The notes below the pieces were generated by a model. The model was not told the DNA's origin, made no database searches, and worked only from the letters and a program-made list of their open reading frames with translations. The position numbers and the translations under genes were made by a program. Of a DNA stretch of 64,000 nt, positions 15,797-63,774 are shown in pieces; position 1 is the stretch's first letter, and each line of letters starts with the position of its first letter. The stretch is from an uncultured Thermoleophilia bacterium (GTDB lineage: Bacteria; Actinomycetota; Thermoleophilia; UBA2241), in NCBI GenBank assembly GCA_963808735.1, contig CAWEHE010000008.1:192719-256718 (forward strand), in the 5' to 3' direction.

Positions 15797-15818
15797 CCAC
15801 CGCATCTCCGGCGCTGCG

Positions 15819-38190: not shown

Positions 38191-38556
38191 TCACGCGGCG
38201 TACCTCGCCGCGGTCATCCTGGCGGCGGGGGCCAGATGATGGCCCGCGCGGGCGCCGGGCAGCCGGAACCGCCACCTGTCCGACGGGATGTAGATCGACG
38301 GCACCCGGAGCGCGCCGGCGTCGGCGAGACGACGCGCGGCGAAGTCGCCGCTCATGCCGCCGGGGGCGAACGCCACGGCCCCGCCCGGGAGCGCCGAGCT
38401 CGACTGCGTCTGCCCGGCCATGAGGGCGGGCGCCGGCTGCGGGAGGCCGGCCGCCTGCGAGGGGGCGGGCGCCGACGCGATGAACGACCCGGCCACCGCG
38501 AGTGCCGCCAGCGACAGGACCAGGGCGACGGTCACGACTACGGACCTGCGTTCCAT
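38191..38556 (-). CDS. small secreted hypothetical protein
   Basis: ATG 38556 with a strong GAAAGGAGAG RBS. Signal peptide MERRSVVVTVALVLSLAALAVAGS. Confidence 0.5.
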   Translation of the reverse strand: MERRSVVVTVALVLSLAALAVAGSFIASAPAPSQAAGLPQPAPALMAGQTQSSSALPGGAVAFAPGGMSGDFAARRLADAGALRVPSIYIPSDRWRFRLPGARAGHHLAPAARMTAARYAA

Positions 38557-38764
38557 GGGTCTCTCCTTTCGCGTGCCTTCCCGATGCGGCGATGCGTCCC
38601 ACTCAACGTAGCGCGGCCCTGCCGCCGTCGCGTCACCCGGAACGGGTGATTCGCGGCGCAGTTCCCCGGCAGCTCGCGGGCGGGCCGTGCGCGCCGCGAC
38701 CGGCGGCCGGGTTACGTTCCCGGTCACCTCTTGAACCCGGCCGACGCCGCGCCAGACTGGGGCG

Positions 38765-39780
38765 GTGTCCGAGCTGATCGACCAGCTGCAGCGCGCCCTG
38801 CGGGCGCGCCACTACAGCCGCCGCACCGAGCAGGCCTACTGCCTGTGGGTGCGGCGGTACGTCCGCTTTCACGGGCTCCGCCACCCGGCAGACATGGCGG
38901 AGCCCGAGATCAACGCCTTCGTCACGCACCTGGCCGTCACCGAGCACGTCAGCGCCTCGACGCAGACCCAGGCGCTCAGCGCGCTCCTCTTCCTCTACCG
39001 CCACGTGCTGCACCGCCGGGTGGGCGAGCTCCACGAGCTGGTCCGCGCCCGCAAGCAGCCCCGCCTGCCGGTCGTGCTGAGCAGGGAGGAGGTCCGCGCC
39101 GTCCTCCACGAGCTCGACCGCGACGACCGCCAGAGCTGGCTGATCGCCTCGCTGCTCTACGGCGCGGGCCTGCGGCTATCCGAGTGCCTGCGCCTCCGCG
39201 TGCTCGACCTCGACCTGGCCCGAGGCGAACTCACCGTCCGCTCGGGCAAGGGCGGCAAGGACCGCGCCACGACGCTCCCGCGGGCGCTCGTCCCCGACCT
39301 GCGCGAGCAGCTGCGCCGCGCGCGCCTCCTCCACGAGCGCGACCTCGCCGCCGGCTGGGGCGCGGTCGAGCTGCCCGCGGCCCTGGAGCGCAAGTACCCG
39401 CGCGCCCCCTGCGAGTGGCGCTGGCAGTGGGTGTTCCCGCAGCGCGCCGCTGGACGGACAGAGGCACCGGCCGCCAGGGCCGCCACCACGTCCACCCGAC
39501 CAGCGTCCAGCGCGCCGTCCACGACGCCGTGCGGCGCGCCGGCATCGACAAGCACGCCACCTGCCACACGCTCCGCCACTCCTTCGCCACGCACCTGCTC
39601 GAGACCGGCTACGACATCCGCACCATCCAGGAGCTCCTCGGCCACAAGGACGTCGGCACCACCATGATCTACACCCACGTCCTGCAGCGCGGCGGCCAGG
39701 GCGTGCGCAGCCCGCTCGACTCCCTCGCACTCCAGCCGGCAACAGGCCGCCCCCATGGCAGAGGGTCAGAAAGGGAGTAA
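38765..39780 (+). CDS. intI: integron integrase IntI (tyrosine recombinase), apparent frameshift near 39470
   Basis: N-terminal frame: ..LRTEQAY-like [17 protein letters not shown], plus the IntI-specific additional domain [22 protein letters not shown]-terminal part in the +1 frame: [64 protein letters not shown] (box II, catalytic HxxR and Tyr). Confidence 0.85.
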
Positions 39781-40124
39781 TTCATGTGTAGTAAGCGGCC
39801 GCCGCTGCCGCCCTTCGAGTTCGATGTGCGCAAGAGCAGGGTCAACAAGCTCAAGCACGGCATCGACTTCGTCGAGGCGCAGGCGCTGTGGATGGTCGAC
39901 GCGCTCGACAACGAGGCCGTGCGCCTGGCGGTGACCCGGCAGTCGGTGATCAGGGTCTGGCTCTCGGAGAGGATCGACCGGAACTGGCGCGCGCTGGAGG
40001 CCGAGGACGCGCGCCGCAAGAAGCAGACTGGATAATCGGTTCTGCGAGCCCTGTGGTACCTTCTTATGCACAAGTCGGAGGCTGCAGCAGATGTCTTCTC
40101 TCTACTGCAGAAATGCAGTTAGCG
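39781..40124 (+). other. attI region (candidate); proposed crossover GTTAGCG at about 40118
   Basis: Lies between the intI stop and the first attC-bounded cassette. The only GTTRR-like site before the first cassette ORF. Not independently verifiable. Confidence 0.25.
39784..40035 (+). CDS. BrnT/DUF497-like toxin-family ORF (possibly degenerate, no partner)
   Basis: PFEFDVRKSRVNKLKHGIDFVEAQAL resembles the DUF497 N-terminus. Shorter than family members. Confidence 0.3.
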   Translation: MCSKRPPLPPFEFDVRKSRVNKLKHGIDFVEAQALWMVDALDNEAVRLAVTRQSVIRVWLSERIDRNWRALEAEDARRKKQTG

Positions 40125-40145
40125 TGCACATGGCGGTGTCCGAGC

Positions 40146-40682
40146 GTGAACAAGCGGTTCCAGCTGGCCTTCATCGATGAACTCAAGGCGCGCGGGTTCA
40201 AGAAGGCCGGACCGACCTGGCGCAAGCAGGCGGGCGACGCCATCACTGTGTTCAATCTGCAGGGGTCGCAGTTCGGTCCGTCTGTCTACGTCAACTTGGG
40301 CGTCTACTTCCGCCCGCTCGGCGAACTCGAGCGGCCCGACGAAGACCAGTGCCATCTCAGGGCCCGGCTCAGCATGCTCGTCCCCGACGCCGTTCGGCTT
40401 CGCGACCTCCTCGACCTCGATCGGCCGATCCCGGATGACGTCCGCTTCGCCGAGCTGCGGCAGCTGGCCGTGGACTACGCGCTACCGTGGCTCGAGCGGA
40501 CGGCTACTCGCCAGGGCGCCAAGGCATGGGTCACCGCTGGGCCGAATGCCGTTGTACACGTGAAGGCGAGGGTACCTGGGGGTTGCCCGTTGGCACCTAA
40601 CAAGCGGATCAAGCTGGCTCGCCGCGGCGCCGGCGGCCTCACGGGAGGCCGGCGCGCTCGCAGCTTATCCGCGGTGCGTTAG
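40146..40682 (+). CDS. cassette 1 ORF: DUF4304-like hypothetical protein
   Basis: GTG about 40146 (VNKRFQLAFIDELKARGFKKAGPTWRK..). ORF runs into attC and uses the TAG inside the GTTAG core. Confidence 0.45.
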   Translation: MNKRFQLAFIDELKARGFKKAGPTWRKQAGDAITVFNLQGSQFGPSVYVNLGVYFRPLGELERPDEDQCHLRARLSMLVPDAVRLRDLLDLDRPIPDDVRFAELRQLAVDYALPWLERTATRQGAKAWVTAGPNAVVHVKARVPGGCPLAPNKRIKLARRGAGGLTGGRRARSLSAVR

Positions 40683-40685
40683 CCC
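40596..40685 (+). other. attC site 1
   Basis: ACCTAAC..AAGCGGATCAAGCTG..stem-loop..CAGCTTATCCGCGGTGC GTTAGCC. Confidence 0.8.
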
Positions 40686-40855
40686 GGTCGACGGAGCGTT
40701 GTTGAGACTCGTCCTCATCATGGTTGCTGTGCGGCGTACTGGTCGCCGGCGCGTCGCGCATGCGGTGAACCCACGCAGCCCGCCTCGCCCTCTCCCTCCC
40801 AGAGCGGCTGGGCATCCGTGTCGAGCGGTGCGGGCACCTGGACCCGAAGGCCTGG

Positions 40856-41146
40856 GTGCGCGGCGAGAGGTTCCGGCTCACCGTAGGACCGGTCCGCGTC
40901 CGCCTCGTGCAAGAGACTCCTGCCGGGGAGCAGGTTGCTCTCGGCCTCGAGCTCGTCCCGCTCGCACCCGCCGCCGCTCGCAACCAGGCGAGCGCGGGCA
41001 CGAGCCGCGGCGTTCCGAGCGAAGACGGCCGGTCCATGGTCACCGAGTTCCGCACGACCAGGGACGTCCTCGCAGGCACCTACTGCCTCGAACTGCGCGG
41101 GACCGGCCGCTACACAGTCACGGTCTACAGCGCGACTTCGCCATGA
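40856..41146 (+). CDS. cassette 2 ORF: hypothetical protein
   Basis: 96-aa ORF, GTG start, beta-rich C-terminus (TYCLELRGTGRYTVTVYS). Other ORFs in this cassette are low complexity. Confidence 0.3.
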   Translation: MRGERFRLTVGPVRVRLVQETPAGEQVALGLELVPLAPAAARNQASAGTSRGVPSEDGRSMVTEFRTTRDVLAGTYCLELRGTGRYTVTVYSATSP

Positions 41147-41189
41147 GCGCTGCTCGCAGGCATGTAGGCCGGGGGTTGTACAGAGGACG

Positions 41190-41279
41190 GGCTAACAAGC
41201 GGATCAAGCTGGCTCGCCGAAGCGCCGGCGGCCTCACGAGCGGCCGGCGCGCTCGCAGCTTATCCGCGGTGCGTTAGGC
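41190..41279 (+). other. attC site 2
   Basis: GGCTAAC..GTTAGGC, type A arms. Confidence 0.8.
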
Positions 41280-41299
41280 GCACAGAGGCGGTGGCGCGG

Positions 41300-41735
41300 T
41301 GAAGCGAGCGTCAGCGGTCATCGTGCTCGCCGCGGGTTCAAGAAGGCCGGACTCGCCTGGCGCGAGCGGCGGGCGACGCCTCACTGTGTTCATCTGCAGC
41401 GGGTCGCAGCTCGGACGCGGCTGTCTACGGCAGACGTGGGAGCATCCGCCCGCTCGGCGAACTCGAGCTCGGCCGGCCGATGCCAGTGCCGCTCGGGCTC
41501 GGCTCGAGCTACTCGCCGCTGACGCCGCGTCGGCTTCGTCGAGCTCATCGACCTCGACCTGCTCAGTGCCGGCGACGTCGGCTTCGCTCGGCTGCGGCAG
41601 CTGGCGTGGACTACGCGCTGCCGTCTCGAGCGGCGGTCGCCTCGCCTACGGGCGCTCGAGGCATGGGCGCCGCTGGCGTCGGATGCCGTCGCAGCGCGAA
41701 GGCGAGCAGAGTAGCTGGGGGTTGGCGTGACGGCA
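41300..41735 (+). pseudogene. cassette 3: decayed paralog of the cassette-1 DUF4304 gene
   Basis: Nucleotide similarity to 40190..40590 (GGGTTCAAGAAGGCCGGAC, CACTGTGTTCA.CTGCAG, CGCCCGCTCGGCGAACTCGAGC, GAGCTGCGGCAGCTGGC.GTGGACTACGCGCT) with many indels and no intact ORF. Confidence 0.45.
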
Positions 41736-41823
41736 CCAACAAGCGGATCAAGCTGGCTCGCCGCGGCGCCGACGGCCTCACGAGAGGCCGGCGCGCTCGC
41801 AGCTTATCCGCGGTGCGTTAGGC
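41734..41823 (+). other. attC site 3
   Basis: CACCAAC..GTTAGGC, type A arms. Confidence 0.8.
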
Positions 41824-41839
41824 GCGGCAACGGGGCAGC

Positions 41840-42188
41840 ATGAATCAACCGATCCCAGACGTGACCATGGCCGACCTCGACCGGATCGTACGCGCGACTT
41901 CCCGCCGGGGGTCGCACGGGCAGGTTGTCAACATTCTGATTCGCTACGGCAGGGGAGACGGCGGAAAGAATCGCGTCTGCGCCGCCGCGTTGAAGCTAGC
42001 CGATGGCGACATCGAGCAGCTGGAGCACTACGATCTGACGAGGCCAGAAGCGACTACCGCGACGTCTTCGGCCTGGGCCGAGTATCCGGCCTACATGGAC
42101 TGCGTGCTCGGACCCAACGGACGAGAGCGAAGCCAAGGCGCTGATCGACGCTGACTGGGAGCAGTATCAGGACTGGTTCAGCCGGTGA
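41840..42188 (+). CDS. cassette 4 ORF: hypothetical protein (apparent frameshift near 42120)
   Basis: ATG 41840 (MNQPIPDVTMADLDRIVRAT..). The protein-like C-terminus DESEAKALIDADWEQYQDWFSR* is in the +1 frame and ends just before attC. Confidence 0.35.
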
Positions 42189-42195
42189 GCAAGCC

Positions 42196-42285
42196 GCCTA
42201 ACAAGCGCATCAACCTGACGCGCCCAACGGCTTCTGTAGCAACCTCAGACCGCAGCCCGCGCAGGTTATGCGCGGTGCGTTAGCC
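42196..42285 (+). other. attC site 4
   Basis: GCCTAAC AAGCGCATCAACCTG..CAGGTTATGCGCGGTGC GTTAGCC, type B arms. Confidence 0.8.
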
Positions 42286-42308
42286 GGGGCAGGTCGGGAG
42301 GTCACAGG

Positions 42309-42748
42309 ATGTCCACTGAACCAGGCAGGATTTCAGCCGCCGCCGGAGCCCGGCGGACCGCGTTGCCGCGCCCGTCGCGCTGGCGCCGCGCCGCTGGAAC
42401 TGGGGCGCCTTCATGTTCACCTGGCTCTGGGGCCTGTTCAACGGTGCCTGGTGGCCGCTGCTCGGCCTTCTGCTCGCGCTCGTCCCCTCGGTCGAGCTTT
42501 GGCGCCACGCGCTCCCCGGCGGCGGCAGCGTCTGGGTCTCCACCGGCACCCTGCTCTACACCGCCTGGTCGGTGTTCTGCGGCCTCATGGGCGACCGCTG
42601 GGCCCTTCGCAGCCGCCGGTGGCGTGACGCCGCCCACTTCCGCAGCGCTCAGCACAACTGGGCGGTGGCCGCCCTCGTCGTCGCCATCGTCCTCGCCGTC
42701 GTGGTCGTCGCCGTGCTCGCCGCGGCGTCGGCGGGGCTCATCTCCTGA
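42309..42748 (+). pseudogene. cassette 5: DUF2628-family membrane protein, frameshifted copy
   Basis: Near-identical to cassette 7 but with one C missing in GAGCCCCGG (about 42345). ATG 42309 reads out of frame; the FNWGAF-type motif WNWGAFMFTWLWGLF is in the other frame (track ORF 42413..42748). Confidence 0.5.
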
Positions 42749-42770
42749 CCATATGTCTGTTGTTGCGCCC

Positions 42771-42861
42771 GGCTAACAAGCGGATCAAGCTGACTCGACA
42801 AACGGCTTCCGTAGTATCCTCGAAGCGGAAGCGCTCGCAGCTTATCCGCGGTGCGTTGGGC
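42771..42861 (+). other. attC site 5
   Basis: GGCTAAC..GTTGGGC. Confidence 0.8.
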
Positions 42862-42918
42862 AGAGCAGGCGGCCCGCGGGATTTCCCTTCTCGCGCCGTA
42901 GGAAGGGGGAGGTGAGCC

Positions 42919-43266
42919 GTGTCGAAGCGCAGCATCATCGTCCTGTTCGTGATCGTCGCCGCCGGCGTTTGATCCTGGCCGTCACGATTCCGCCTCTCCT
43001 CAGCTCGCCGTCCCAGATCGCCCAGAAGGCAGCCGGTACCTGGCAGGAGGTTGGTGAGGCGCCTGCATACACCATGCAGGTCGTTGGCGCCGGCTCCACC
43101 TATCTGGTCAGCTACCCGCGCTGGCGCTATGACCGTGAAGGCTTTCTCTCTTCAGGGCGACGAGCTCGTCGGGGGCGGTGGCGAGAACACCATGAACGAC
43201 ATGGTGAAGACCATCACCTACGACAATGGGGCCGATCAGCTCACCATCAGCGACGAAGAGCGGTGA
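42919..43266 (+). CDS. cassette 6 ORF: small secreted protein (two compensating apparent frameshifts)
   Basis: GTG 42919 after GGGGGAGGTGA. Signal/TM VSKRSIIVLFVIVAAGV continues as LILAVTIPPLL only after a 1-nt shift at GTTTGATC. Frame returns near TTTCTCTCTT to give ..LQGDELVGGGGENTMNDMVKTITYDNGADQLTISDEER*. Confidence 0.3.
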
Positions 43267-43588
43267 CACGGTACACCCTTCAGCGCGTAGACCGTCCGGC
43301 CGGGATCGTCGGCGTGATGCGCGAGGCGGGCGGACGGTACCCGGGCCTCAGGCGCATGCCCAACGTGCTCATCGAGGTCCGCTGTGCAGTCGGCGGATGG
43401 CCCCGTCGTCTCCAACGCGACCTCCGGCAAGAAGGGGACGTTCAAAGTCACCGTCGCACCGGGTCGCTACTGGGTCGTACCGGTGGCCAAGGGCGACGAG
43501 CAGGTGGTGGCCGATGCGGTGTCGGTCGAGGCAGGTTCGTACGTCGCGGCGAAGCCGTTCTTCTCAGTCAGGTGAGCTGCAGTGGCCT

Positions 43589-43675
43589 GCCCAACAAGCA
43601 CATCAACCTGATGCACCCGAAGGGAGCAGTGGACTCACGGTCAACGGCGCACAGGTTATGTGCCGGACGTTAGCC
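43589..43675 (+). other. attC site 6
   Basis: GCCCAAC AAGCACATCAACCTG..CAGGTTATGTGCCGGAC GTTAGCC, type B variant. Confidence 0.75.
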
Positions 43676-43698
43676 GGGGCAGGTCGGGAGGTCACAGG

Positions 43699-44139
43699 AT
43701 GTCCACTGAACCAGGCAGGATTTCAGCCGCCGCCGGAGCCCCGGCGGACCGCGTTGCCGCGCCCGTCGCGCTGGCGCCGCGCCGCTGGAACTGGGGCGCC
43801 TTCATGTTCACCTGGCTCTGGGGCCTGTTCAACGGTGCCTGGTGGCCGCTGCTCGGCCTTCTGCTCGCGCTCGTCCCCTCGGTCGAGCTTTGGCGCCACG
43901 CGCTCCCCGGCGGCGGCAGCGTCTGGGTCTCCACCGGCACCCTGCTCTACACCGCCTGGTCGGTGTTCTGCGGCCTCATGGGCGACCGCTGGGCCCTTCG
44001 CAGCCGCCGGTGGCGCGACGCCGCCCACTTCCGCAGCGCTCAGCACAACTGGGCGGTGGCCGCCCTCGTCGTCGCCATCGTCCTCGCCGTCGTGGTCGTC
44101 GCCGTGCTCGCCGCGGCGTCGGCGGGGCTCATCTCCTGA
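43699..44139 (+). CDS. cassette 7 ORF: DUF2628-family membrane protein (intact copy)
   Basis: ATG 43699 with GGGAGG RBS. MSTEPGRISAAAGAPADRVAAPVALAPRRWNWGAFMFTWLWGLFNGAWWPLLG.., 2-3 TM helices. Confidence 0.6.
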   Translation: MSTEPGRISAAAGAPADRVAAPVALAPRRWNWGAFMFTWLWGLFNGAWWPLLGLLLALVPSVELWRHALPGGGSVWVSTGTLLYTAWSVFCGLMGDRWALRSRRWRDAAHFRSAQHNWAVAALVVAIVLAVVVVAVLAAASAGLIS

Positions 44140-44172
44140 CCATATGTCTGTTGTTGCGCCCGGCTAACAAGC

Positions 44173-44262
44173 GGATCAAGCTGACTCGACAAACGGCTTC
44201 CGTAGTATCCTCAAGCGGAAGCGCTCGCAGCTTATCCGCGGTGCGTTAGGCGCACAGTAAGA
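44173..44262 (+). other. attC site 7
   Basis: GGCTAAC..GTTAGGC. Near-identical to attC 5. Confidence 0.8.
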
Positions 44263-44559
44263 CGGAACGTGTGAGACCGTCCTCTCTGAGCGTGAACGAA
44301 CTGGTAGTTGGCGCTCGAGCATGCGCTGAACGCCAGCGCCCGCTCATCGCCCGACCTTCTTCGCAGACGCTGCCGTGTGGAGTCGATGCGTGCTACGCTG
44401 GCCTCGGCTCGCAGCGGAGCGGAGCCGGCTACACCGCCGGCGACGTAAGCACGTGCACGAGACCGGTGGAGCAGCTGCGCATCCAGAACTCGGTCGCGCT
44501 CGCACGACGACGGCGTTCGCCGGTGAGCGCCGTGTCTTCGAGCTCGCGGCTCCGACGCG

Positions 44560-44743
44560 ATGCGGCAGGCCATCGACACCGAGGTCCGCGCGATCTCGGA
44601 CGCTCCTCGCAGCTCGCTGCACTGCTTCGAGATCACTGTGCGGCGATGCGCTCGCTGCATCAATCATGGTCTCGCGCGACTACGCAAAAGCGATGTTCCG
44701 GCACGACGAGGTCCGGGCGTTGTCGGAGGCGAATGGTGCCTAA
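44560..44743 (+). CDS. cassette 8 ORF: small hypothetical protein (frame uncertain)
   Basis: ATG 44560 (MRQAIDTEVRAISDAPRSSLHCFEITV..). A +1 frame ends ..MVSRDYAKAMFRHDEVRALSEANGA* using the TAA inside the attC inverse core. Confidence 0.2.
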
Positions 44744-44826
44744 CAAGCGGATCAAGCTGGCTCGCCAAAGCGCCGCGGCAAGACGAGAGGCCGCGGCGCT
44801 CGCAGCTTATCCGCGGTGCGTTAGAC
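44738..44826 (+). other. attC site 8
   Basis: GCCTAAC..GTTAGAC, type A. Confidence 0.8.
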
Positions 44827-44846
44827 AGGCACGGTGAGGCGGCAAG

Positions 44847-45302
44847 GTGGACCTCAATCTGCGACCGGCCTCGAAGCGAGATCGGGAGTTCCTCTACGCG
44901 CTGCACTGCTCCACCATGCGCGACGTGATCGAGCAGACATGGGGCTGGGATGAGGCCTGGCAGCGTGCCGACTTCGAGAAGCGTTTCGAGGTGTGCGCCG
45001 TCTCGATCATCGAGGCCGGAGCGCGCTCTGTCGGGAGTCTGTGGCTCGAGCAGCGACCCGACTCGCTCTACATCCACGAACTGCAGGTGACGCCCCCACA
45101 ACAGGGTAGGGGAATCGGCACGGCGGTGATCGAGATGGTGATCGAGCAGGGTGCCAGTCGCGGACTGCCGATCGTCCTCTCGGTCGTCCCGGCGAACCCA
45201 CGCGCCCGCGATTTGTACGAACGATTGGGCTTCAGAGTGACGTGCGTCGAACCACCATTCATTCGCATGCGACATGACGCGCGCCTAGCGGGAGCTGTCT
45301 AA
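44847..45302 (+). CDS. cassette 9 ORF: GNAT-family N-acetyltransferase
   Basis: 151 aa. Motif A QQGRGIGTAVIEMVIEQ. Stop TAA lies within the inverse core GTCTAAC. Confidence 0.75.
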   Translation: MDLNLRPASKRDREFLYALHCSTMRDVIEQTWGWDEAWQRADFEKRFEVCAVSIIEAGARSVGSLWLEQRPDSLYIHELQVTPPQQGRGIGTAVIEMVIEQGASRGLPIVLSVVPANPRARDLYERLGFRVTCVEPPFIRMRHDARLAGAV

Positions 45303-45386
45303 CATGCGCGTCAACCTGACGCGGTCAACGGTTTCTGTAGTAACTTGGGAGCGCGGCCCGCGCAGGTTACGCGCGGTGCGTTGGAC
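45297..45386 (+). other. attC site 9
   Basis: GTCTAAC ATGCGCGTCAACCTG..CAGGTTACGCGCGGTGC GTTGGAC, type B. Confidence 0.8.
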
Positions 45387-45403
45387 CGACTGACGGAGGG
45401 GTT

Positions 45404-45940
45404 GTGAGGATCGGGGCCGTTCTTCTATTCGTTGTCGCACTCTTGGGGCTCTCCGCATGCGGTCAGTCATCGTCCACCTTTGCGCCGTCGCCCACGTCGA
45501 CGCCCGCCGCTGTCAGCTATGCCGACCCGGCCGAACTGTACGCCGCTATCGAGAAGGCGGGCGCGCCGAAGGTCGAGGGCTTCGGCAGCGGCACGTTCAG
45601 CGAGGGCGGCTCGATGCCAGCTGACGCCAAGGCCGAGCGCGGCAACTTCATGGCCGCCATCTCCTCCGACCGCTACATGCTCTCGCTCGCCGACGGGACG
45701 CCGGCCGTGTCGATGGTTGCAGCCGTCTTCCCTGACGCGGCCTTGCGGGACCTTGGCGTGGCTTTCGGGCAGCATCTCGCCGCCGCGCTCGGGAACCCGT
45801 CTGAGCCGCAACTGCAGGGACCGAACTGGCTCATCTGGGGCGACGAGGAGGCGCTGCGGGCGATCCAGGGCGCGATTGGCGGCGAGATGGGTCGCACGCC
45901 CACCGTCACGGTGTCGCCCGAAGCGGGAGCCGCATCTTGA
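45404..45940 (+). CDS. cassette 10 ORF: lipoprotein, hypothetical
   Basis: Signal peptide plus lipobox LLGLSAC. 178 aa. Confidence 0.6.
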   Translation: MRIGAVLLFVVALLGLSACGQSSSTFAPSPTSTPAAVSYADPAELYAAIEKAGAPKVEGFGSGTFSEGGSMPADAKAERGNFMAAISSDRYMLSLADGTPAVSMVAAVFPDAALRDLGVAFGQHLAAALGNPSEPQLQGPNWLIWGDEEALRAIQGAIGGEMGRTPTVTVSPEAGAAS

Positions 45941-45974
45941 CGTTGCGCAAGGCCATGTGGCAGGTGTTAGAGCG

Positions 45975-46064
45975 GTCCAACCAGCGGATCAAGCTGGCTC
46001 GCCGCAGCGCCGGCGGCCTCACGAGAGGCCGTCGCGCTCGCAGCTTATCCGCGGTGCGTTGGGC
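45975..46064 (+). other. attC site 10
   Basis: GTCCAAC..GTTGGGC, type A. Confidence 0.8.
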
Positions 46065-46097
46065 GCATCCACACCCTATCGCGGAGGTCGGGATGCC

Positions 46098-46529
46098 ATG
46101 AATCGTGAGCACGTGCCGGTGGGCTTCCTGCTGATCGCCGCCTTCTACGCGCTGGGCGTCGCTGCGGTGACGTTCACGCTCTTCACCAACCGGGATGAGG
46201 TCGGCGCCCAGCTCGCTGCCGTGCATGGTCTCACCATGCTTGCCGGCCCTGCCAGCATGCTGCTCACGATCGCGGCGGGCGCCATGGTCGTGGTCGCGTT
46301 CTGCAGACCGCGGCCCTGGGCCTTCTGGCTCGTCGTCGGGTACATGGTGTACCTGCTCATCATCCCCCGACTCATGGTGGGGCCGAACGGCATCTCGGTC
46401 TTCGCCAACGTCGTCTGGCCTCTGTTCATGCTGGCCTATCTCCTTTGGCGGCATCGCTACTTCGGTATCGGCAGGCCCTTGGAGCGCCCAACAAGCGCAT
46501 CGAGCAGAACGCCAGCAGGTCTGCCGTGA
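46098..46529 (+). CDS. cassette 11 ORF: hypothetical 4-TM membrane protein
   Basis: ATG 46098 after GGAGGTCGGG. MNREHVPVGFLLIAAFYALGVAAVTF.. 143 aa. 3' end overlaps attC. Confidence 0.5.
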   Translation: MNREHVPVGFLLIAAFYALGVAAVTFTLFTNRDEVGAQLAAVHGLTMLAGPASMLLTIAAGAMVVVAFCRPRPWAFWLVVGYMVYLLIIPRLMVGPNGISVFANVVWPLFMLAYLLWRHRYFGIGRPLERPTSASSRTPAGLP

Positions 46530-46572
46530 ACCGGCAGGCCGACCGCGTCTGCTCATGCGCGGTGCGTTAGCC
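46486..46572 (+). other. attC site 11
   Basis: GCCCAAC AAGCGCATCGAGCAG..CTGCTCATGCGCGGTGC GTTAGCC, type C arms. Confidence 0.8.
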
Positions 46573-46604
46573 CCATCAACTGCACTGCCTGGGAGGATGC
46601 GTCC

Positions 46605-47267
46605 GTGAATCCCATCGAACGCAGGGTTCGGGCCCACATCATGAACCGCCTGCTCGAGACGGGCGAGGCGCCGAGCGTGAGCCAGGTCTCGGACTCGCTT
46701 GAGATCTCGCGAGCAGACGTGATCGCCGGTCTTCACTCACTCGCAGCTCAGCATCGTCTCGTCTTGCGGCCCGCCTCGGACGCGATCTGGATGGCGCATC
46801 CGTTCTCAGGGATCGAGACGGACTTTGTAGTGAACGCGGCCGGCCGCACATGGTACGCGAACTGCGTTTGGGACGGGCTTTCGATTCTCGGTCACGTCGG
46901 CGACGGACGACTTGAGACGCACTCGCCACAGACAGGGGAGGCCATCCGCTTCGACGTCGAAGACGGCCGCGTAGTAGGTGATGCGATCGTCCACTTCCTC
47001 GTGCCTGCGAAGCTGTTCTGGGATGACATAGGGTTCACGTGAGCCAACATCTCGGCCTTCCGGTCGGAAGGCGAACTCAGCTCGTGGCTGACGTCGACGG
47101 GGTATGCGGTCGGTGCAGTGGTGAGCCCGCAGACCGTCTATGACCTCGGGCGCGACTGGTACGGAACCAGACTCGACCTGGACTTTCAGCCGTTCACGCC
47201 CGAGCAGGCGCAGGACACCTTCGCGAAGCATGGGCTTGTCGGCGCGTTCTGGTCGCTGGTCTCATGA
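46605..47267 (+). pseudogene. cassette 12: MerB-like organomercurial lyase interrupted by an in-frame TGA (47040-47042)
   Basis: N-terminal HTH-like region, then TWYANCVWDGLSILGHVG and ..FLVPAKLFWDDIGFT-TGA-ANISAFRSEGELSSWL..LVS*. The two pieces are in the same frame and total about 220 aa, like MerB. Confidence 0.5.
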
Positions 47268-47269
47268 GG

Positions 47270-47356
47270 GGCTAACAAGCGCATCGAGCAGAACGCCACA
47301 AGGTCCGCCGCACAGCGGCAGGCCAGCCGTGTCTGCTCATGCGCGGTGCGTTAGTC
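47270..47356 (+). other. attC site 12
   Basis: GGCTAAC..GTTAGTC, type C. Confidence 0.8.
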
Positions 47357-47425
47357 ACAGCCTCCTCCACTGGTCGAGAGGGTACGTTAGTGGTACCGTG
47401 ACCGGTAGTACAGGAGGTAGCGTCA

Positions 47426-47701
47426 ATGGCATCAGTACCCGACATCGTACCCATCACCGACCTGCGCCAGGACGCCTCGGGCGTGATCAAGCGGGCCGCC
47501 GACACCCAGCAGCCGGTGTTCATCACGCAGCGCGGTCGCGCGTCCGCCGTCGTCGTCAGCGCGAAGGCCTACGAGCGCACGCAGCACGAGCTCGAGATCC
47601 TGCGCCTGCTCGCCACCGGCGAGGCCGAGATCGAGGCCGGCACCGGCCACGCGCTGGCAGACGTGTTGGCCGAGGCTGACGAGCTGCTCGGCAGGCCGTG
47701 A
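47426..47701 (+). CDS. cassette 13: Phd/YefM-family antitoxin
   Basis: 91 aa. PITDLRQDASGVIKRAADTQQPVFITQRGRASAVVVSAKAYE. Confidence 0.75.
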   Translation: MASVPDIVPITDLRQDASGVIKRAADTQQPVFITQRGRASAVVVSAKAYERTQHELEILRLLATGEAEIEAGTGHALADVLAEADELLGRP

Positions 47702-48006
47702 GCCGCAGGGTCCTCTTCACCCCCGCAGCCCGCGAGCAGTTCCTCGCGGCGCTCGCCTACATCGCGGGCGACGACCCGGCGGCAGCGCGGAATCTGCGCG
47801 ACCGCGCCGGCGCATCGCTCGCGCACCTCGCCGACTACCCGGAATCGGGGCGCGTGCTGCGTGAGTTCCCTGACCTGCCGTTTCGCGAGGTCATCGTGCC
47901 GCCGTACCGCTTCTTCTACCGCGTCAAGGACGACGCGGTGTGGGTGGTCGCGGCCTGGCACTCGGCCCAGCTTCCCGGCGAGCCGGAGGACGTTGGGCGT
48001 GACTAA
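47698..48006 (+). CDS. cassette 13: ParE/RelE-family toxin
   Basis: GTG overlaps the antitoxin stop. LFTPAAREQF..EVIVPPYRFFYRV..VWVVAAWH. Stop TAA inside the inverse core GACTAAC. Confidence 0.7.
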   Translation: MSRRVLFTPAAREQFLAALAYIAGDDPAAARNLRDRAGASLAHLADYPESGRVLREFPDLPFREVIVPPYRFFYRVKDDAVWVVAAWHSAQLPGEPEDVGRD

Positions 48007-48091
48007 CAAGCGGATCAAGCTGGCTCGCCGGCAGCGTCTACGGTACACTTCGTACCGTGAGCGCTCGCAGCTTATCCGCGGTGCGTTGGGC
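48001..48091 (+). other. attC site 13
   Basis: GACTAAC..GTTGGGC, type A with a divergent central loop. Confidence 0.8.
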
Positions 48092-48184
48092 ATACGCTCG
48101 GCGACCCGTGGCGGAGTCCGGAGCGCAGGGTGGACGTTGCCCTCGGGTCGTTGCATTTCCGCAGTCTCCGGTTATACTCACGGT

Positions 48185-48418
48185 ATGAAGACGGCGATCT
48201 CCATACCCGACGACCTGTTCGCCGACGCCGAGCAGCTGGCTCGGGAGCTGAAGAAGTCGCGCAGCAGCCTCTACGGGGACGCGGTGCGTGAGTACGTCGC
48301 CCGCCACTCCGCCGAGAGCATCACCGAGGGCCTGGATCGCCTCTGCGACGAGGTCGATTGCCGCAGCGATTTCGCCGGTGCCGCTGCGCGCCGCACCTTC
48401 GAGCGTAGCGACTGGTGA
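48185..48418 (+). CDS. mazE: cassette 14: ribbon-helix-helix (CopG/MazE-like) antitoxin
   Basis: 77 aa. MKTAISIPDDLFADAEQLARELKKSRSSLYGDAVREYV. Confidence 0.65.
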   Translation: MKTAISIPDDLFADAEQLARELKKSRSSLYGDAVREYVARHSAESITEGLDRLCDEVDCRSDFAGAAARRTFERSDW

Positions 48419-48756
48419 CCGCCCAGGGCGAGGTCTGGTGGGCCGACCTGGGCGAGCCCTCCGGCTCCGAGCCCGGCTTCCGCCGCCCCGTCGTCGTCGT
48501 GCAGGGCGACGCCTTCAACCGCAGCCGCATCGCCACCGTCGTCTGCGTCGCGCTGACCAGCAACCTGCGCTGGGCCGACGCCCCCGGCAACGTCCTCCTC
48601 AGCGCGCGCGCTACCGGTCTGCCCAAGGATTCCGTGGCCAATGTCTCGCAGCTCGTGACCGTCGACCGCGAGGCGCTCACCGAGCGCGTCGGCGCCCTGC
48701 CCGCGAAGAAGCTCGAGCTTGTGCTGCTCGGCATCGACATCGTCCTCGGGCGTTGA
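48415..48756 (+). CDS. mazF: cassette 14: MazF/PemK-family endoribonuclease toxin
   Basis: GTG overlaps the antitoxin stop. GEVWWADLGEPSGSEPGFRRPVVVVQGDAFN.. Confidence 0.75.
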   Translation: MTAQGEVWWADLGEPSGSEPGFRRPVVVVQGDAFNRSRIATVVCVALTSNLRWADAPGNVLLSARATGLPKDSVANVSQLVTVDREALTERVGALPAKKLELVLLGIDIVLGR

Positions 48757-48763
48757 CGCGATT

Positions 48764-48853
48764 GCCCAACAAGCGGATCAAGCTGACTCGCAGATGCGCC
48801 GGCGGCCTCACGGGAGGCCGGCGCGCTCGCAGGTTATGCGTGGTGCGTTAGGC
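48764..48853 (+). other. attC site 14
   Basis: GCCCAAC..GTTAGGC, mixed A/B arms (AAGCTGACTCGC / CAGGTTATGCGTGG). Confidence 0.8.
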
Positions 48854-48875
48854 GCGCGGAGGACCACGGAGACCG

Positions 48876-49478
48876 ATGTATTACGGGCTGCTTATCTACC
48901 CCAACGGCGTGGACGAGGCCCTCGTAGGCAGGATACGTCGTAAGTACGATCCCACGGTCGATGTCATCGCCCCGCACGTGCCGGTCGTCTATCCGGTTCC
49001 CGACGGGGTGGGACGCGACCTGCTCATCTCTCACATTCGGAACGTCACGCTCGCCTGCGCGCCCTTCGAGATCCGCCTCGGCGCCCTGCACCGGTCAGCC
49101 GACCACTGGCTCTTCTTCACGCCGGTCGACGGCAAGGAGGACCTGAGGCGCCTCCATCTAGGTCTCCACACCGGCCTCCTGGCCGAGTTCCGCGAAGCGG
49201 ACAGGGACTACGTACCGCACGTCGGCCTCGGCCACTTCATGAGAGAAGGCGCGACCTACGACTGGGAGAACCCACGCGAAGAGGACTTCGATGCCGAGAG
49301 GTACGAGGCCGCCGTCCGGGAGGCGCAGCCCCTCCTCGATGGTCCAGCCGAGCGTATCGACACGCTCCATCTGGTCACCATCCCCGACGCGGCGGTCGAG
49401 TGGTTCAGTGGAGAGGGGTCGACGTTCCCGAGGGACTCCCGAGCTGAAGAGGTGTGCGCGTTCACGTTCGGCGCCTAA
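48876..49478 (+). CDS. cassette 15 ORF: hypothetical protein (possibly 2H-phosphoesterase-like)
   Basis: 200 aa, no confident family. Stop TAA inside the inverse core GCCTAAC. Confidence 0.5.
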   Translation: MYYGLLIYPNGVDEALVGRIRRKYDPTVDVIAPHVPVVYPVPDGVGRDLLISHIRNVTLACAPFEIRLGALHRSADHWLFFTPVDGKEDLRRLHLGLHTGLLAEFREADRDYVPHVGLGHFMREGATYDWENPREEDFDAERYEAAVREAQPLLDGPAERIDTLHLVTIPDAAVEWFSGEGSTFPRDSRAEEVCAFTFGA

Positions 49479-49562
49479 CAGGCGCATCGAGCAGATTGGC
49501 CCGCAGGCTATGATGTCGGCGAAGGCGCAGGGAGCCAACTGCTCATGCGCGGTGCGTTCGGT
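49473..49562 (+). other. attC site 15
   Basis: GCCTAAC AGGCGCATCGAGCAG..CTGCTCATGCGCGGTGC GTTCGGT, type C. Confidence 0.75.
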
Positions 49563-49581
49563 GGACCATGGAGGCGGGACG

Positions 49582-49980
49582 GTGAAGGCGCTGCTCGGCA
49601 TCGCGATCTTGTTGCTGGCGACGGTTCTCATCGCCTGCGGCGATGCGCAGCAGCCAGCGACGTGCAGCATCGAAGAGCCGTTGCTCTCAGTCCTCGTCAC
49701 GCCCGGGGGCCTCTACGTCGATGACCAAGTCGAACCGGTCACCCTCGCGCAGCTCGACACGATGTTCGCGGCCCTCGCCGATCAGCACGGCGAGGTACGC
49801 TTGGACAGCTTGGCCCCACTCGGCGGCTTCGCGCCGACAAGCTGGGAGCGCTCGAAGGTCGACCACCACTCGGGGCAGGTGGCTGCCCTCGTCAGCAAGC
49901 ATGGCCTCCACATCGTCACCGAGGCCGGCCGCATGCCGGTACGGGGCTGGGCGAGCCCGCCTGGGGGTGTCGACCCGTGA
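49582..49980 (+). CDS. cassette 16 ORF: lipoprotein, hypothetical
   Basis: GTG 49582 after GGAGG. VKALLGIAILLLATVLIACGD (lipobox LIAC). Confidence 0.55.
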   Translation: MKALLGIAILLLATVLIACGDAQQPATCSIEEPLLSVLVTPGGLYVDDQVEPVTLAQLDTMFAALADQHGEVRLDSLAPLGGFAPTSWERSKVDHHSGQVAALVSKHGLHIVTEAGRMPVRGWASPPGGVDP

Positions 49981-49984
49981 GGCC

Positions 49985-50068
49985 ACCGAACAAGCGCATC
50001 AAGCTGGCCCGCAGTAGACTCTACGCTGAAAGCCGTAGCCCGCGCAGGTTATGCCCGGTGCGTTAGAC
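49985..50068 (+). other. attC site 16
   Basis: ACCGAAC AAGCGCATCAAGCTG..CAGGTTATGCCCGGTGC GTTAGAC. Confidence 0.75.
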
Positions 50069-50085
50069 CGACCAATCGAGGACCG

Positions 50086-50670
50086 TTGATTCGCACCCCC
50101 AGCCGCGCCGCCGTCGACCTGTACTGGATCCCCCTGGGCGCCGGTGGCCACGTCGTGCGGCTCAACGGCAAGGTCTTCGAGGCCGTGGTGTCAACGTTCG
50201 AACGCCGGTCCCCCCTCGACCTCTATCACTCGGCGCTTGAGGTGCGCGTGCCGGAGGGCCGCTACACGATTGAGAGTGCCCCGGTTCCGAACGCCCACGC
50301 GCATGAGCGTGGGGCCGTCTCTGGCGGTCCCGTCGGGAGCCGTTGGGCCGGGCGCCTGCGCATCTTTCGCTACGAGATCCGGTGCTGGCCTGGCGGGGTC
50401 ATCCCCGACCTCGGGGAGGCGGTCGAGAGCCCTCAGCGAATGACCGAGGATGAGGCGCGCGCCCGGAGTGTGCTCGCTCTCGCGCCCTGCGTGCCCACAC
50501 CCGTCTGGGGGCGCGATGAGCTGCAAGCCGGCGAGATGTGGAACTCGAACTCGATCATCTCCTGGCTCCTTGTGCGCAGCGGTCTGGGTGTGGAGTCGGC
50601 CAGTATGCCGAGTGGCGGGCGCGCTCCCGGATGGGATGCGGGTCTCGTCGTGGCGCGGCGGCAGGTCTAA
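50086..50670 (+). CDS. cassette 17 ORF: hypothetical protein
   Basis: TTG 50086 after GAGGAC. 194 aa. Stop TAA inside the inverse core GTCTAAC. Confidence 0.45.
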   Translation: MIRTPSRAAVDLYWIPLGAGGHVVRLNGKVFEAVVSTFERRSPLDLYHSALEVRVPEGRYTIESAPVPNAHAHERGAVSGGPVGSRWAGRLRIFRYEIRCWPGGVIPDLGEAVESPQRMTEDEARARSVLALAPCVPTPVWGRDELQAGEMWNSNSIISWLLVRSGLGVESASMPSGGRAPGWDAGLVVARRQV

Positions 50671-50749
50671 CAAGCGCAGCGAGCAGAACGCCAGCACGTA
50701 GACTCAATCCCAAACGCTGCCGCGTCTGCTCATGCGCGGTGCGTTAGCG
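50665..50749 (+). other. attC site 17
   Basis: GTCTAAC AAGCGCAGCGAGCAG..CTGCTCATGCGCGGTGC GTTAGCG, type C. Confidence 0.8.
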
Positions 50750-50823
50750 GTACAGCGAGTCGTGAGGGGAATGTCCACCACTCGGGTGCTGCGTCCGTCC
50801 GGGGCGCGGGGGAGACTGAAGCC

Positions 50824-51054
50824 ATGCGCAGCACCGATCTCGATATCTCCAAGATCTCCGTGGCCGAGCGTATCCAGCTCGCCGAGGACATCTGGGACAG
50901 CGTCGCCGCCGAGACCGGCGACCTCCCGCTCACCGAGGCCCAGGCCGCCGAACTCGATCGTCGCCTTGCCGACCTCGAGCGCGACCCGGACGCCGGTGAG
51001 AGCTGGCCGGTCGTGCGCGCCCGCATCGAGCAGCGTCTGGACGAGGCCGGCTGA
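50824..51054 (+). CDS. cassette 18: putative addiction-module antitoxin component
   Basis: 76 aa acidic helical protein (ISVAERIQLAEDIWDSV..LTEAQAAELDRRLADLERDPDAG) typical of small antitoxin families. Confidence 0.5.
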   Translation: MRSTDLDISKISVAERIQLAEDIWDSVAAETGDLPLTEAQAAELDRRLADLERDPDAGESWPVVRARIEQRLDEAG

Positions 51055-51057
51055 GGC

Positions 51058-51352
51058 ATGCGCCTCGTCGTCCGCGAGGCGGCCGAGGCGGACATCGCCG
51101 AAGCCGCACGCTGGTACGAGCGGCGCTCCCCCGGCCTCGGCTCGGAGTTCCGGGTGCGCTCAGCGTCGAGGCGATCACAGCGCCCGACGCCGCGAGACTG
51201 CTCATGGCCACCAGCGGCCAGCCGGTGCTGGTGAGCGACGACCTAGGCCTGACGTGGTCCGCAAGCGGCCACGCCTCTTGGCTCGGTGATGGCCCTGCCT
51301 GCGACATCGCCGCTGTTATGACCGTGCAGTACCTGGGGAGCAAGGGAGCCTA
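51058..51352 (+). pseudogene. cassette 18: ParE/RelE-like toxin remnant
   Basis: MRLVVREAAEADIAEAARWYERRSPGLGSEFRV.. then loses the family pattern. Ends at the degenerate last attC. Confidence 0.35.
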
Positions 51353-51440
51353 GCAGGCGCATCGAGCAGGGCACTCTAGGATCTATCGCACGGCGGCCGG
51401 CCGGCCGCGCCTGCTCATGCGCGAAGCGCTGGATGGACCG
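51348..51440 (+). other. attC site 18 (degenerate, end of array)
   Basis: GCCTAGC AGGCGCATCGAGCAG..CTGCTCATGCGCGAAGCGCTGG. Inverse core mutated (TAGC) and the GTTRRRY core lost. Confidence 0.5.
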
Positions 51441-51657
51441 CCATGTCCGGCCGGGCGCCGCGCCGGGGAGAAGGATCTCGCCGGAGCCGTGGCCGGGCAT
51501 AGACGGTCTCCTCGTCACCACGGTCCGAGGATTCGCAGTGCCGTCTTTGGGATACGACGCATACGAGCGTGACGGATGATCGAGGCCTCAGGCAGAAGCG
51601 GCACGGTGGCGGTGGCTTCCACTGATCGAAGTCCGGCACCGGGATAGGGGAACACAC

Positions 51658-52056
51658 ATGGTGAAGAGTGCGCCGCAGGATGGCCGGTCTCCCTCTCAGC
51701 TGATCGACGCGAGGATCGAGGAGCTGGGCGACTGGCGGGGCGAGATGCTCAGCCGGCTCCGTGCCTTGGTCAGGGAAGCCGACCCTGAAGTCGTCGAGGA
51801 GTGGAAGTGGAGAGGCGTTCCGGTGTGGTCCCACGACGGAATGGTCTGCACAGGCGAGACCTACAAGAACGTCGTGAAGACGACGTTCGCCAAAGGGGCC
51901 GCTCTGGAGGATCCGTCGGACCTCTTCAATTCCAGTCTCGAAGGGAAGACGAGGCGCGCCATCGACTTCCACGAAGGCGAGAAGATCGACGAGGAGGCGT
52001 TGAAGGCTCTCGTCCGCGCCGCCGTGGCACTGAACACGTCGCGAGCCAAGAGGTAG
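51658..52056 (+). CDS. DUF1801 (YdhG-like) domain protein
   Basis: 132 aa. LIDARIEELGDWRGEMLSRLRALVREADPEVVEEWKW. Confidence 0.6.
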   Translation: MVKSAPQDGRSPSQLIDARIEELGDWRGEMLSRLRALVREADPEVVEEWKWRGVPVWSHDGMVCTGETYKNVVKTTFAKGAALEDPSDLFNSSLEGKTRRAIDFHEGEKIDEEALKALVRAAVALNTSRAKR

Positions 52057-52183
52057 TCCACGCGATGAGGACGGGCCGCGCCGCAGGTCGCTCGACGCCC
52101 GGCACGCGCGTCGACCGCGTCTTCATCGAGCGCCTGGGCGGGCCCGGGACCCCGTCCGGCGAGCGCACCAACAGGGAGGGGAC

Positions 52184-52915
52184 ATGAGGCCGTTCATCCA
52201 TCATCGCGCCGGGGTCCTCGGCGTCGTTCTCGTCGTCGTGGCTGCGGCTACGCTCGTCGCCTATGCTCGGGCAGGTGGTGCTCCTGCGGCCTCGCAGCAG
52301 TCGGCGCCCGTGTGGCTGGACACTGCGTCGCCCGCGCTGACCGGCCACGACGTCGCCGTCAGCGGTGGCATCGACGCGCAGGCGGACCTCTCGGGCACCG
52401 CCGTCAAGATCTACAAGCGTGAGGTGGGCGAGAGCGTCGATACGCTCGTCGGCGACGCGCCCGTCACGTTCAACGTCATGAGCGGGAACGTGTTCGATGC
52501 CGTCATTCCCGCCGTGGCGCGCAGCTGCATCGTCACCGTCTCGTGGGAAGGCAACGCGGACTACCTCGCCTCGACCACGTGGATGTTCGCCGGCGTGAGG
52601 CCGAAGCTCGTGATCAGGGCGCCGGTTGCCACGCGCACGGAGACACGGGTGCGGGTCACGATCGCGCCCGAGCAGCCGCTTCACCGCCAGGGCATGACGC
52701 GGCCGCCGTTCCTCGCCGACGTCCAGTGCCGCAGGCACGGCGTGTGGACGAGGTTCCCCGCGGAGCTCGGAAACATGGGCACCGACGGCGAGTCCTGGTG
52801 CCTCTACACCTTCTACGACGTGAAGCCCGGAACCTATGTGATCCGGGCACGCTTCGCCGGCACCAACTACAACGTCGCGTCGGTGTCGAGGATCACGCGC
52901 ATCATCGTGCCGTGA
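52184..52915 (+). CDS. secreted hypothetical protein
   Basis: Signal peptide LGVVLVVVAAATLVAYARA. 243 aa, no family recognised. Confidence 0.5.
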   Translation: MRPFIHHRAGVLGVVLVVVAAATLVAYARAGGAPAASQQSAPVWLDTASPALTGHDVAVSGGIDAQADLSGTAVKIYKREVGESVDTLVGDAPVTFNVMSGNVFDAVIPAVARSCIVTVSWEGNADYLASTTWMFAGVRPKLVIRAPVATRTETRVRVTIAPEQPLHRQGMTRPPFLADVQCRRHGVWTRFPAELGNMGTDGESWCLYTFYDVKPGTYVIRARFAGTNYNVASVSRITRIIVP

Positions 52916-63772: not shown

Positions 63773-63774
63773 CT

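Follow-up and report, generated by a model that had tools for sequence, protein, structure and literature searches.

The window analysed here, i.e. the whole stretch of 64,000 nucleotides from contig CAWEHE010000008.1, very probably carries a sedentary chromosomal integron of the co-oriented ('inverted-integrase') type, located between pntAB and tal-pgi-zwf in a chromosome of the class Thermoleophilia (Actinomycetota). Its elements follow each other on the + strand in the order intI (38765-39780), attI (approximately 40040-40124) and 18 attC sites (40595-51434), which set off 18 cassettes with lengths of 462-814 bp. The locus is an integron by every testable defining feature, sedentary chromosomal by its location, conservation and content, and of the inverted-integrase type by its orientation. 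It is no new kind of element, the unusual aspect being its host lineage. A preliminary description of this DNA, made from the letters alone, had proposed a chromosomal integron with about 18 attC cassettes, which is borne out by the IntI assignment, by the attC structure, by the attI site and by a position conserved across relatives; exactly 18 attC elements were found.

The first of these elements is the integrase gene:
38765-39780, + strand, intI, integron integrase (TIGR02249, PF13495, PF00589, alignment to VchIntIA), with a 1-nt deletion at 39444

It starts with GTG at 38765, and the open reading frame (ORF) beginning there covers a tyrosine recombinase over its N-terminal two thirds; the C-terminal catalytic part follows in a different frame and ends at 39780. 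After restoration of one base the protein matches the TIGR02249 model 'integron integrase' over the whole profile (1-315 of 315) at 460.8 bits (cut-off 265), and the SAM-like N-terminal domain (PF13495) and the catalytic domain (PF00589) are both matched in Pfam. The alignment to VchIntIA from Vibrio cholerae (2A3V; E=6e-90) is unbroken over residues 8-320, includes the extra domain and spans the ALERKYP...WVF segment, and Xer proteins align as two separate stretches only, skipping approximately residues 180-244. It is not XerC or XerD, as the respective models gave 148 bits (cut-off 335) and 143 bits (cut-off 330). Thus, the additional domain that had been read from the letters is present on the full-length VchIntIA alignment, and neither its absence nor a XerC/D identity was found. 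The protein is a tyrosine recombinase of the IntI family with the integron-specific additional domain. A protein search with IntI returned thousands of homologues, more than 100 metagenomic ones being 74-91% identical; some of their source names are Thermoleophilia bacterium and Aeromicrobium sp., and public records already say integron integrase.

Using repeat finding and pattern searches we identified 18 attC elements of 84-91 nt and built the covariance model R1 from them. Within the 64-kb window R1 recovers all 18 sites at 61-95 bits and nothing further on the + strand better than E=0.03, the rest being weak reverse-strand echoes and chance-level matches. The sites with their R1 scores are:
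40595-40684, + strand, attC 1, 92.7 bits, with the fold described below
41190-41279, + strand, attC 2, 95.4 bits
41734-41823, + strand, attC 3, 90.5 bits
42196-42285, + strand, attC 4, 91.8 bits
42771-42861, + strand, attC 5, 89.5 bits
43589-43675, + strand, attC 6, 61.3 bits
44162-44251, + strand, attC 7, 94.8 bits
44738-44826, + strand, attC 8, 92.5 bits
45297-45386, + strand, attC 9, 81.0 bits
45975-46064, + strand, attC 10, 93.1 bits
46486-46572, + strand, attC 11, 80.0 bits
47270-47356, + strand, attC 12, 80.3 bits
48001-48091, + strand, attC 13, 82.0 bits
48764-48853, + strand, attC 14, 82.4 bits
49473-49562, + strand, attC 15, 72.5 bits
49985-50068, + strand, attC 16, 67.4 bits
50665-50749, + strand, attC 17, 64.3 bits
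51348-51434, + strand, attC 18, terminal, both cores degenerate (AGC...GCT), 67.4 bits

A search of the window with Rfam 15 at gathering thresholds gave no attC family, the only matches being a bacterial class A RNase P RNA at 63388-63777 (268.6 bits) and a single tRNA at 14423-14507. The attC fold consists of the R''/R' pairing (TAAC/GTTA), a short unpaired spacer that is asymmetric (2 nt vs 5 nt), a 12-bp L''/L' stem in which one base is unpaired, and a tip that is GC-rich and variable. In the alignment of the 18 sites 96.4% of the cells in the 17 proposed R and L pairs are standard, compensatory changes on both sides occur in 8 of the 17 pairs, and pairing falls to 21-39% in slid controls with the partner moved by 1-3 columns. 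Three L-box subtypes covary (GCGGATCAAGCTG, GCGCATCAACCTG and GCGCATCGAGCAG), and with a mean column identity of 73% the sites form a homogeneous family. AAC...GTT is invariant in 17 sites and replaced by AGC...GCT in the last one, so that from the cores RYYYAAC and GTTRRRY given in the preliminary description the AAC/GTT part stood, the full consensus being only loosely matched (e.g. GTTAGCC, GTTCGGT). The unpaired base is an invariant C (C16) in the 5' arm (L'') of the + strand, which on the bottom strand corresponds to an extrahelical G in its 3' arm. Such an extrahelical base is the canonical mark of the recombinogenic attC bottom strand. The extra C on the + strand therefore identifies this strand as the attC top strand, the same as that of intI (for the extrahelical base as a bottom-strand mark see also PMC12614218). 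The orientation of the genes and a weak positive GC skew of the window hint that the attC bottom strands may be on the leading-strand template.

For comparison we scanned one genome per GTDB species, which returned 80 related loci (L numbers below), and R1 finds 206 sites in them at E<0.001. In every Actinomycetota locus the attC sites follow intI and share its strand, and the 10 kb available typically contain 15-25 of them. In a Duganella control locus (L053) the matches precede intI and are on the other strand, the arrangement of a classical integron, and because this locus reads as the classical layout the orientation call made with R1 is validated. An Anaerolineales locus (L048) also has its matches upstream of intI on the opposite strand, and in an Acidobacteriota locus (L069) they are co-oriented with intI. 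The preliminary description had rightly placed intI on the strand of the array, as all 18 attC sites share its strand. The layout is not unusual as had been stated there, being a recognised integron type (PMC4889954, PMC13323075) and the rule in this clade.

The attI site lies approximately 340 nt downstream of intI:
40040-40124, + strand, attI, a conserved block ending in TACTGCAGAAATGCA G|TT AGCG, crossover at 40118/40119

In 12-15 loci aligned after intI a conserved block of approximately 80 nt ends with TACTGCAGAAATGCA GTT RG, the GTT being at 40118-40120 in the window. Over 15 loci the majority-base fraction reaches 1.0 at GTT, compared with 0.66-0.78 in the preceding 80 nt and 0.45-0.52, i.e. 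background, in the sequence after it. Conservation up to GTT followed by divergence is the signature expected of an attI, a common site after which each genome continues with its own first cassette. Near the crossover AGAAAT is framed by an imperfect inverted repeat (CTACTGC / GCAGTTAG). The same site adjoins cassette 13 in L002, and cassette 1, which is adjacent to attI in the window, adjoins an attC in L013. The block is thereby identified as the primary recombination site adjacent to intI, at which cassettes are inserted.

BLAST searches with each cassette body showed that eight cassette types also occur in the related loci, where they occupy different positions in the array; for at least six the match extends across the whole cassette. 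Cassette 1 recurs as a whole in L013 (14292-14767, 95% identical), cassette 5/7 in L019 (91%), cassette 9 in L015 (87%), cassette 13 in L002, where it is the first cassette beside attI, and in L003, L006 and L012 (85-91%), cassette 14 in L010, L006 and L009 (86-92%) and cassette 15 in L019 (94%); a part of cassette 18 is found in L008 (92%) and a 164-nt part of cassette 17 in L015 (82%). At the left end of cassette 13 the identity to L002 is 0.17 before G|TT and 0.90 after it, the left neighbour being attC 12 in the window and attI in L002. Likewise, cassette 1 has attI to its left in the window and an attC in L013, and at its right end the identity to L013 is 0.98 up to GTT and 0.33 after it. 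With homology ending at GTT on both sides, the cassettes are discrete units moved by site-specific recombination. The G|TT junctions are as left by attI x attC and attC x attC reactions, and the system has therefore recombined in this lineage; they record past events and not the present activity of this copy.

Some points weigh against this reading. In the sequence as given intI has a frameshift, and this copy of the gene may hence be inactive. R1 was trained on the same sites that it scores in the window, which makes its scores there circular. A sigma-70 consensus and terminator scan of 38500-40700 calls neither of the two promoters proposed below and no terminator. The host assignment depends on the labels of metagenome-assembled genomes (MAGs), and two close relatives, L010 and L034 (a 968-kb contig), are labelled deltaproteobacteria with IntI being 89-93% identical and the attC family being the same. 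For R1 an independent validation exists, because the 206 matches adjoin intI homologues in other genomes; the two labels could reflect mislabelling, mis-binning or a recent cross-phylum transfer.

The frameshift that had already been noted in intI was located to a 1-nt deletion at 39444, where all seven aligned relatives keep the base (relatives CAGCAGCGC, window CAGC-GCGC). It falls before the catalytic HxxR...Y region, and the reading frame of intI is thus broken in the sequence at hand. The main alternative to be weighed is that intI is truly inactivated at this position and has left the array as a frozen relic, equivalent in function to a cluster of attC sites lacking an integron integrase (CALIN), which would persist only through its toxin-antitoxin cassettes or depend on a second integrase acting in trans. 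As the deletion is window-specific and lies outside any homopolymer, as cassettes 5 and 12 also appear frame-broken and as the terminal attC is degenerate, this has some appeal, but we consider it unlikely. The same kind of lone 1-nt indel, compared with all relatives, occurs in pntA (36006 and 36433) and pntB (36920), a MoxR-like ATPase gene changes frame twice (near 31300 and 31540), and the copy in cassette 5 carries a lone indel at 42351. This corresponds to a break of the frame approximately every 1-2 kb in the housekeeping sequence of the window, and a consensus error (long-read MAG) is therefore far likelier than simultaneous decay. The two copies in cassettes 5 and 7 differ by two indels, one of them a change in the length of a C run, and one substitution, i.e. 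indels prevail 2:1, and intI is otherwise free of defects with all catalytic motifs intact downstream. Given comparable lone indels in pntA, pntB and the MoxR-like gene, we infer that the frameshift in intI has with good probability a technical origin (sequencing or assembly error). The reading of intI as a true pseudogene was downgraded after these matching indels had been found. The window probably stems from an error-prone (long-read) assembly, in which frameshifts are no proof of pseudogenes.

The position of the integron in the chromosome was confirmed by its flanks with pntA upstream and transaldolase (tal), glucose-6-phosphate isomerase (pgi) and zwf downstream, in agreement with the core genes described on both sides. 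The GC content of the host of about 70% also holds. The Firmicutes-like host does not, since comparison with Mb-scale MAG contigs assigns it to the class Thermoleophilia of the Actinomycetota. The closest loci have an IntI with 86-93% identity and are nearly all from MAGs labelled Thermoleophilia, Actinomycetes or Actinomycetota. Such an intI and the same attC family, always co-oriented, occur together in more than 15 Thermoleophilia (Actinomycetota) MAGs, and several contigs of related hosts span 0.2-2.1 Mb. In eight MAGs (L002, L003, L005, L006, L008, L009, L011 and L013) fakA-pntA-pntB is located upstream of intI as in the window, with a flank protein identity of 79-96% that roughly tracks the identity of IntI. 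The shared fakA-pntA-pntB site shows therefore that the element is chromosomal and fixed at one site in related species, which would fit vertical inheritance.

One could also imagine that the integron was recently acquired on a mobile element or that the contig is mis-binned or chimeric and hence uninformative on Actinomycetota. The deltaproteobacteria labels of L010 and L034, the lack of the pntAB flank in L033, L019, L012 and L018, and a cassette GC below that of the flanks would be in line with this idea, which we nevertheless regard as very improbable. The fakA-pntA-pntB-intI junction is the same in eight genomes with IntI identity roughly tracking that of FakA, host contigs reach 0.4-2.1 Mb, and the locus and its immediate surroundings showed no transposase, relaxase or phage genes. 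Moreover, the Actinomycetota IntIs form one clade in a rough neighbour-joining tree (no bootstrap, IntI1 outgroup entered by hand), which sits among environmental IntIs of Gemmatimonadota, Desulfobacterota and Limnochordia. Practically negligible is the idea of a Xer-like recombinase that lies by chance beside unrelated intergenic palindromic repeats (REP-like or terminator-like) without any integron: GC hairpins are abundant in high-GC genomes and the RYYYAAC/GTTRRRY consensus is only loosely matched, but it is refuted by the integrase profile scores (143-148 bits with the XerC/XerD models at cut-offs of approximately 330), by the extra domain in the protein, by repeats that here, as in more than 15 genomes, are confined to the region downstream of intI, and by a between-genome homology that stops exactly at G|TT.

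A chromosomal integron of the co-oriented type has its counterpart in the inverted-integrase integrons of Treponema denticola and other non-proteobacterial lineages (an IntegronFinder category), where intI is likewise on the attC top strand, i.e. the cassette strand, and attI downstream of intI (PMC4889954, PMC13323075). This 'inverted integron-integrase group' is recognised and paraphyletic in one analysis (PMC4889954), and the co-oriented layout is treated as a standard category (PMC13323075). The host phylum differs, and the IntI clade found here is actinobacterial. With the V. cholerae superintegron the locus shares the chromosomal and lineage-conserved position, homogeneous attC sites, mostly unknown-function, toxin-antitoxin and duplicated cassettes and an integrase that aligns over its full length. 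However, intI is divergent there and co-oriented here, more than 150 cassettes compare with 18, and here no LexA box was found and the host GC is approximately 70%. The chromosomal integrons of Xanthomonas occupy a fixed site next to ilvD across related species, pointing to ancestral acquisition and vertical inheritance, and they have the classical divergent layout with many intI genes being truly degraded. Here the fixed site is next to pntB in eight genomes, whereas the phylum is different, the layout is co-oriented and the frameshift in intI is probably technical. Besides the locus described here, an integron is reported from one other phylum of the Gram-positive type. In a Limnochordia MAG (L020) the IntI is 67% identical to that of the window and attC matches are co-oriented, but it belongs to another phylum, has a GC of 0.55 and its attC sites match R1 weakly (28-47 bits). 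In this locus attC-like matches on the intI strand are found on both sides of intI (6363-7726 and 12025-17436), which suggests a second array or a rearrangement.

Surveys of complete genomes reported no complete integron in Actinobacteria (Cury 2016, PMC4889954; IntegronFinder 2.0, PMC9024848) and called this absence 'intriguing', hinting at a barrier. A study from 2026 still stresses the virtual absence in Actinomycetota (PMC13323075), and one review lists Actinobacteriota among the phyla with integrons detected (PMC8618304). The earlier remark that integrons are rarely reported in such a background agrees with these surveys (PMC4889954, PMC9024848, PMC13323075). Our literature search on Thermoleophilia, Solirubrobacter or Actinomycetota together with integrons gave resistome surveys and no work describing these elements. 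Should they be covered in literature that we did not find, the locus would simply be a well-formed example of a known element. Together with its more than 15 relatives it otherwise documents large, site-fixed integrons with moved cassettes in one abundant soil class of Actinomycetota and is a counter-example to the widely repeated distribution gap of Actinobacteria being almost without integrons. As Thermoleophilia carry such integrons, any barrier is therefore not phylum-wide. More tentatively, and with slightly more doubt than confidence, we propose that Thermoleophilia and possibly other soil Actinomycetota harbour an old, vertically inherited and evolutionarily active integron family with its own control logic (leaderless intI, non-LexA palindromic operator, cassette promoter in the spacer), and that the statement 'Actinobacteria lack integrons' is a sampling artefact. 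If so, the accepted picture would go back to the cultured or complete genomes and short-read assemblies behind it, and the family would offer a natural system for the folding of single-stranded attC DNA and for integron recombination in a Gram-positive-type host with 70% GC. For tests of high-GC actinobacterial integrons the locus provides intI, attI and an attC family as well as promoter and operator candidates, and it gives access to cassettes of soil Actinomycetota, most of them of unknown function.

The candidate control elements around intI and attI are:
38710-38728, no strand, palindrome GGTTACGTTCCCGGTCACC, candidate operator, approximately 55 nt upstream of the intI start in at least 14 related loci
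38731-38758, + strand, candidate intI promoter with -35 TTGAAC (38731-38736), a 16-nt spacer and -10 CAGACT (38753-38758)
40054-40062, + strand, candidate cassette promoter (Pc), extended -10 TGGTACCTT (TGnTAnnnT), approximately 56 nt upstream of the crossover and pointing into the array

The palindrome, with the consensus GGTGACGTTnCCnGTCACC (GTKACGTTnCCnGTCAC) among relatives, adjoins the -35 of the candidate intI promoter and is nearly absent elsewhere in 1.07 Mb of related-locus sequence. Relatives keep the order of palindrome, TTGAAC, a spacer of approximately 16-17 nt and CAGACT or CACGCT. The -10 ends 6 nt before the GTG start (GTG or ATG in relatives), and this spacing predicts a leaderless intI mRNA. 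The Pc motif is kept as TGGTAnnnT or TGATAnnnT in 11 of 15 aligned loci. The sigma-70 scan made no calls, and both promoters are proposed from conservation. SOS control is known for many integrons. A LexA box (GAAC-N4-GTTC) upstream of intI was looked for, giving one poor match in the window that is not conserved among 20 relatives, and SOS-type LexA control of intI was rejected, the conserved palindrome being a different one. The control of intI may thus differ from the SOS control of many integrons, with the palindrome as a putative operator.

A working model derived from the sequence can be outlined as follows. IntI, a tyrosine recombinase with the extra domain, would be made from a leaderless transcript whose promoter adjoins the conserved palindrome. 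It would recombine folded bottom-strand attC hairpins with each other, leading to cassette excision, or an attC hairpin with the double-stranded attI, leading to insertion at G|TT (40118/40119). Transcription of the cassettes on the + strand might then start at a promoter between intI and attI (candidate at 40054-40062) or continue through from intI. Toxin-antitoxin cassettes (Phd/ParE, MazF and a lone antitoxin), which unlike the promoterless ORFs of the preliminary description probably have their own promoters, would stabilise the array.

All plausible cassette ORFs are on the + strand, and those with a family match or a duplicate are:
40131-40682, + strand, cassette 1 ORF, DUF4304 (PF14137, E=4e-20)
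42280-42855, + strand, cassette 5, duplicate of cassette 7 (574/577 identical), with a 1-nt homopolymer difference that breaks the membrane-protein ORF
43670-44245, + strand, cassette 7, intact copy, ORF 43699-44139 for a predicted membrane protein of 146 aa without family match
44847-45302, + strand, cassette 9 ORF, GNAT acetyltransferase (PF00583, E=2e-14)
46605-47042, + strand, cassette 12 ORF, MerB-like (alkylmercury lyase family), probably frame-broken (PF03243, E=2e-10, first 77 of 126 profile positions only)
47426-48006, + strand, cassette 13, Phd/YefM antitoxin (47426-47701, PF02604, E=1e-16) and ParE toxin (47698-48006, PF05016, E=2e-14)
48170-48756, + strand, cassette 14, RHH/VapB-like antitoxin (weak, PF09957, E=7e-4) and MazF/PemK toxin (48415-48756, PF02452, E=3e-26)
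48876-49478, + strand, cassette 15 ORF, 2H phosphoesterase / 2'-5' RNA ligase superfamily (PF13563, E=9e-15)
50824-51054, + strand, cassette 18 ORF, putative addiction-module antitoxin, lone (PF09720, E=1e-15)

The other cassettes are without family match, Pfam giving none for 9 of the 10 main unknown-function ORFs tested, and the PADLOC defence models did not match any of ten unknown-function cassette proteins. The cassette GC of 0.63-0.72 is slightly below that of the flanks (0.71-0.74) in the window as well as in relatives. This content is typical of sedentary chromosomal integrons. Cassette 3 (41274-41733) has 78% DNA identity to 14363-14758 of L013, which is that locus' copy of cassette 1 (DUF4304), and cassettes 1 and 3 are therefore two diverged members of one family, besides the near-identical pair of cassettes 5 and 7.

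Between intI and attI lies a further small ORF, which is not a cassette:
39784-40035, + strand, 83-aa ORF with a weak BrnT_toxin match (residues 13-37)

It looks like a deletion remnant of brnT-brnA with the N-terminus of BrnT fused to a BrnA-like C-terminus. Fuller brnT-brnA-like copies are found at the same place in L004 (approximately 11020-11600) and L006 (approximately 11016-11600), and L003, L033, L005, L013 and L002 have no counterpart of the spacer ORF. A brnT-brnA in the spacer would be a toxin-antitoxin module of the integron platform and not of a cassette.

The region 51435-54900 between the last attC and tal shows no attC-like site with R1 and no visible intergenic remnant that would continue the array. 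It has a GC of 0.68-0.70 and contains the following small genes:
51658-52056, + strand, DUF1801 gene
52184-52915, + strand, ORF without named family
53007-53396, + strand, GFA-like ORF
ending at 54015, + strand, ASCH-domain ORF
54150-54527, + strand, second DUF1801 gene, the sole one of this run with a counterpart in a related locus (L007)
54520-54879, + strand, cupin gene

These genes could represent fossil cassettes or else a small island of their own. On the other side of the integron, 33332-35134 encodes a 600-aa protein with a DAK2/FakA-like N-terminal part and a full DegV (FakB-like) domain, an apparent fusion of fatty-acid kinase subunits that is kept in related MAGs.

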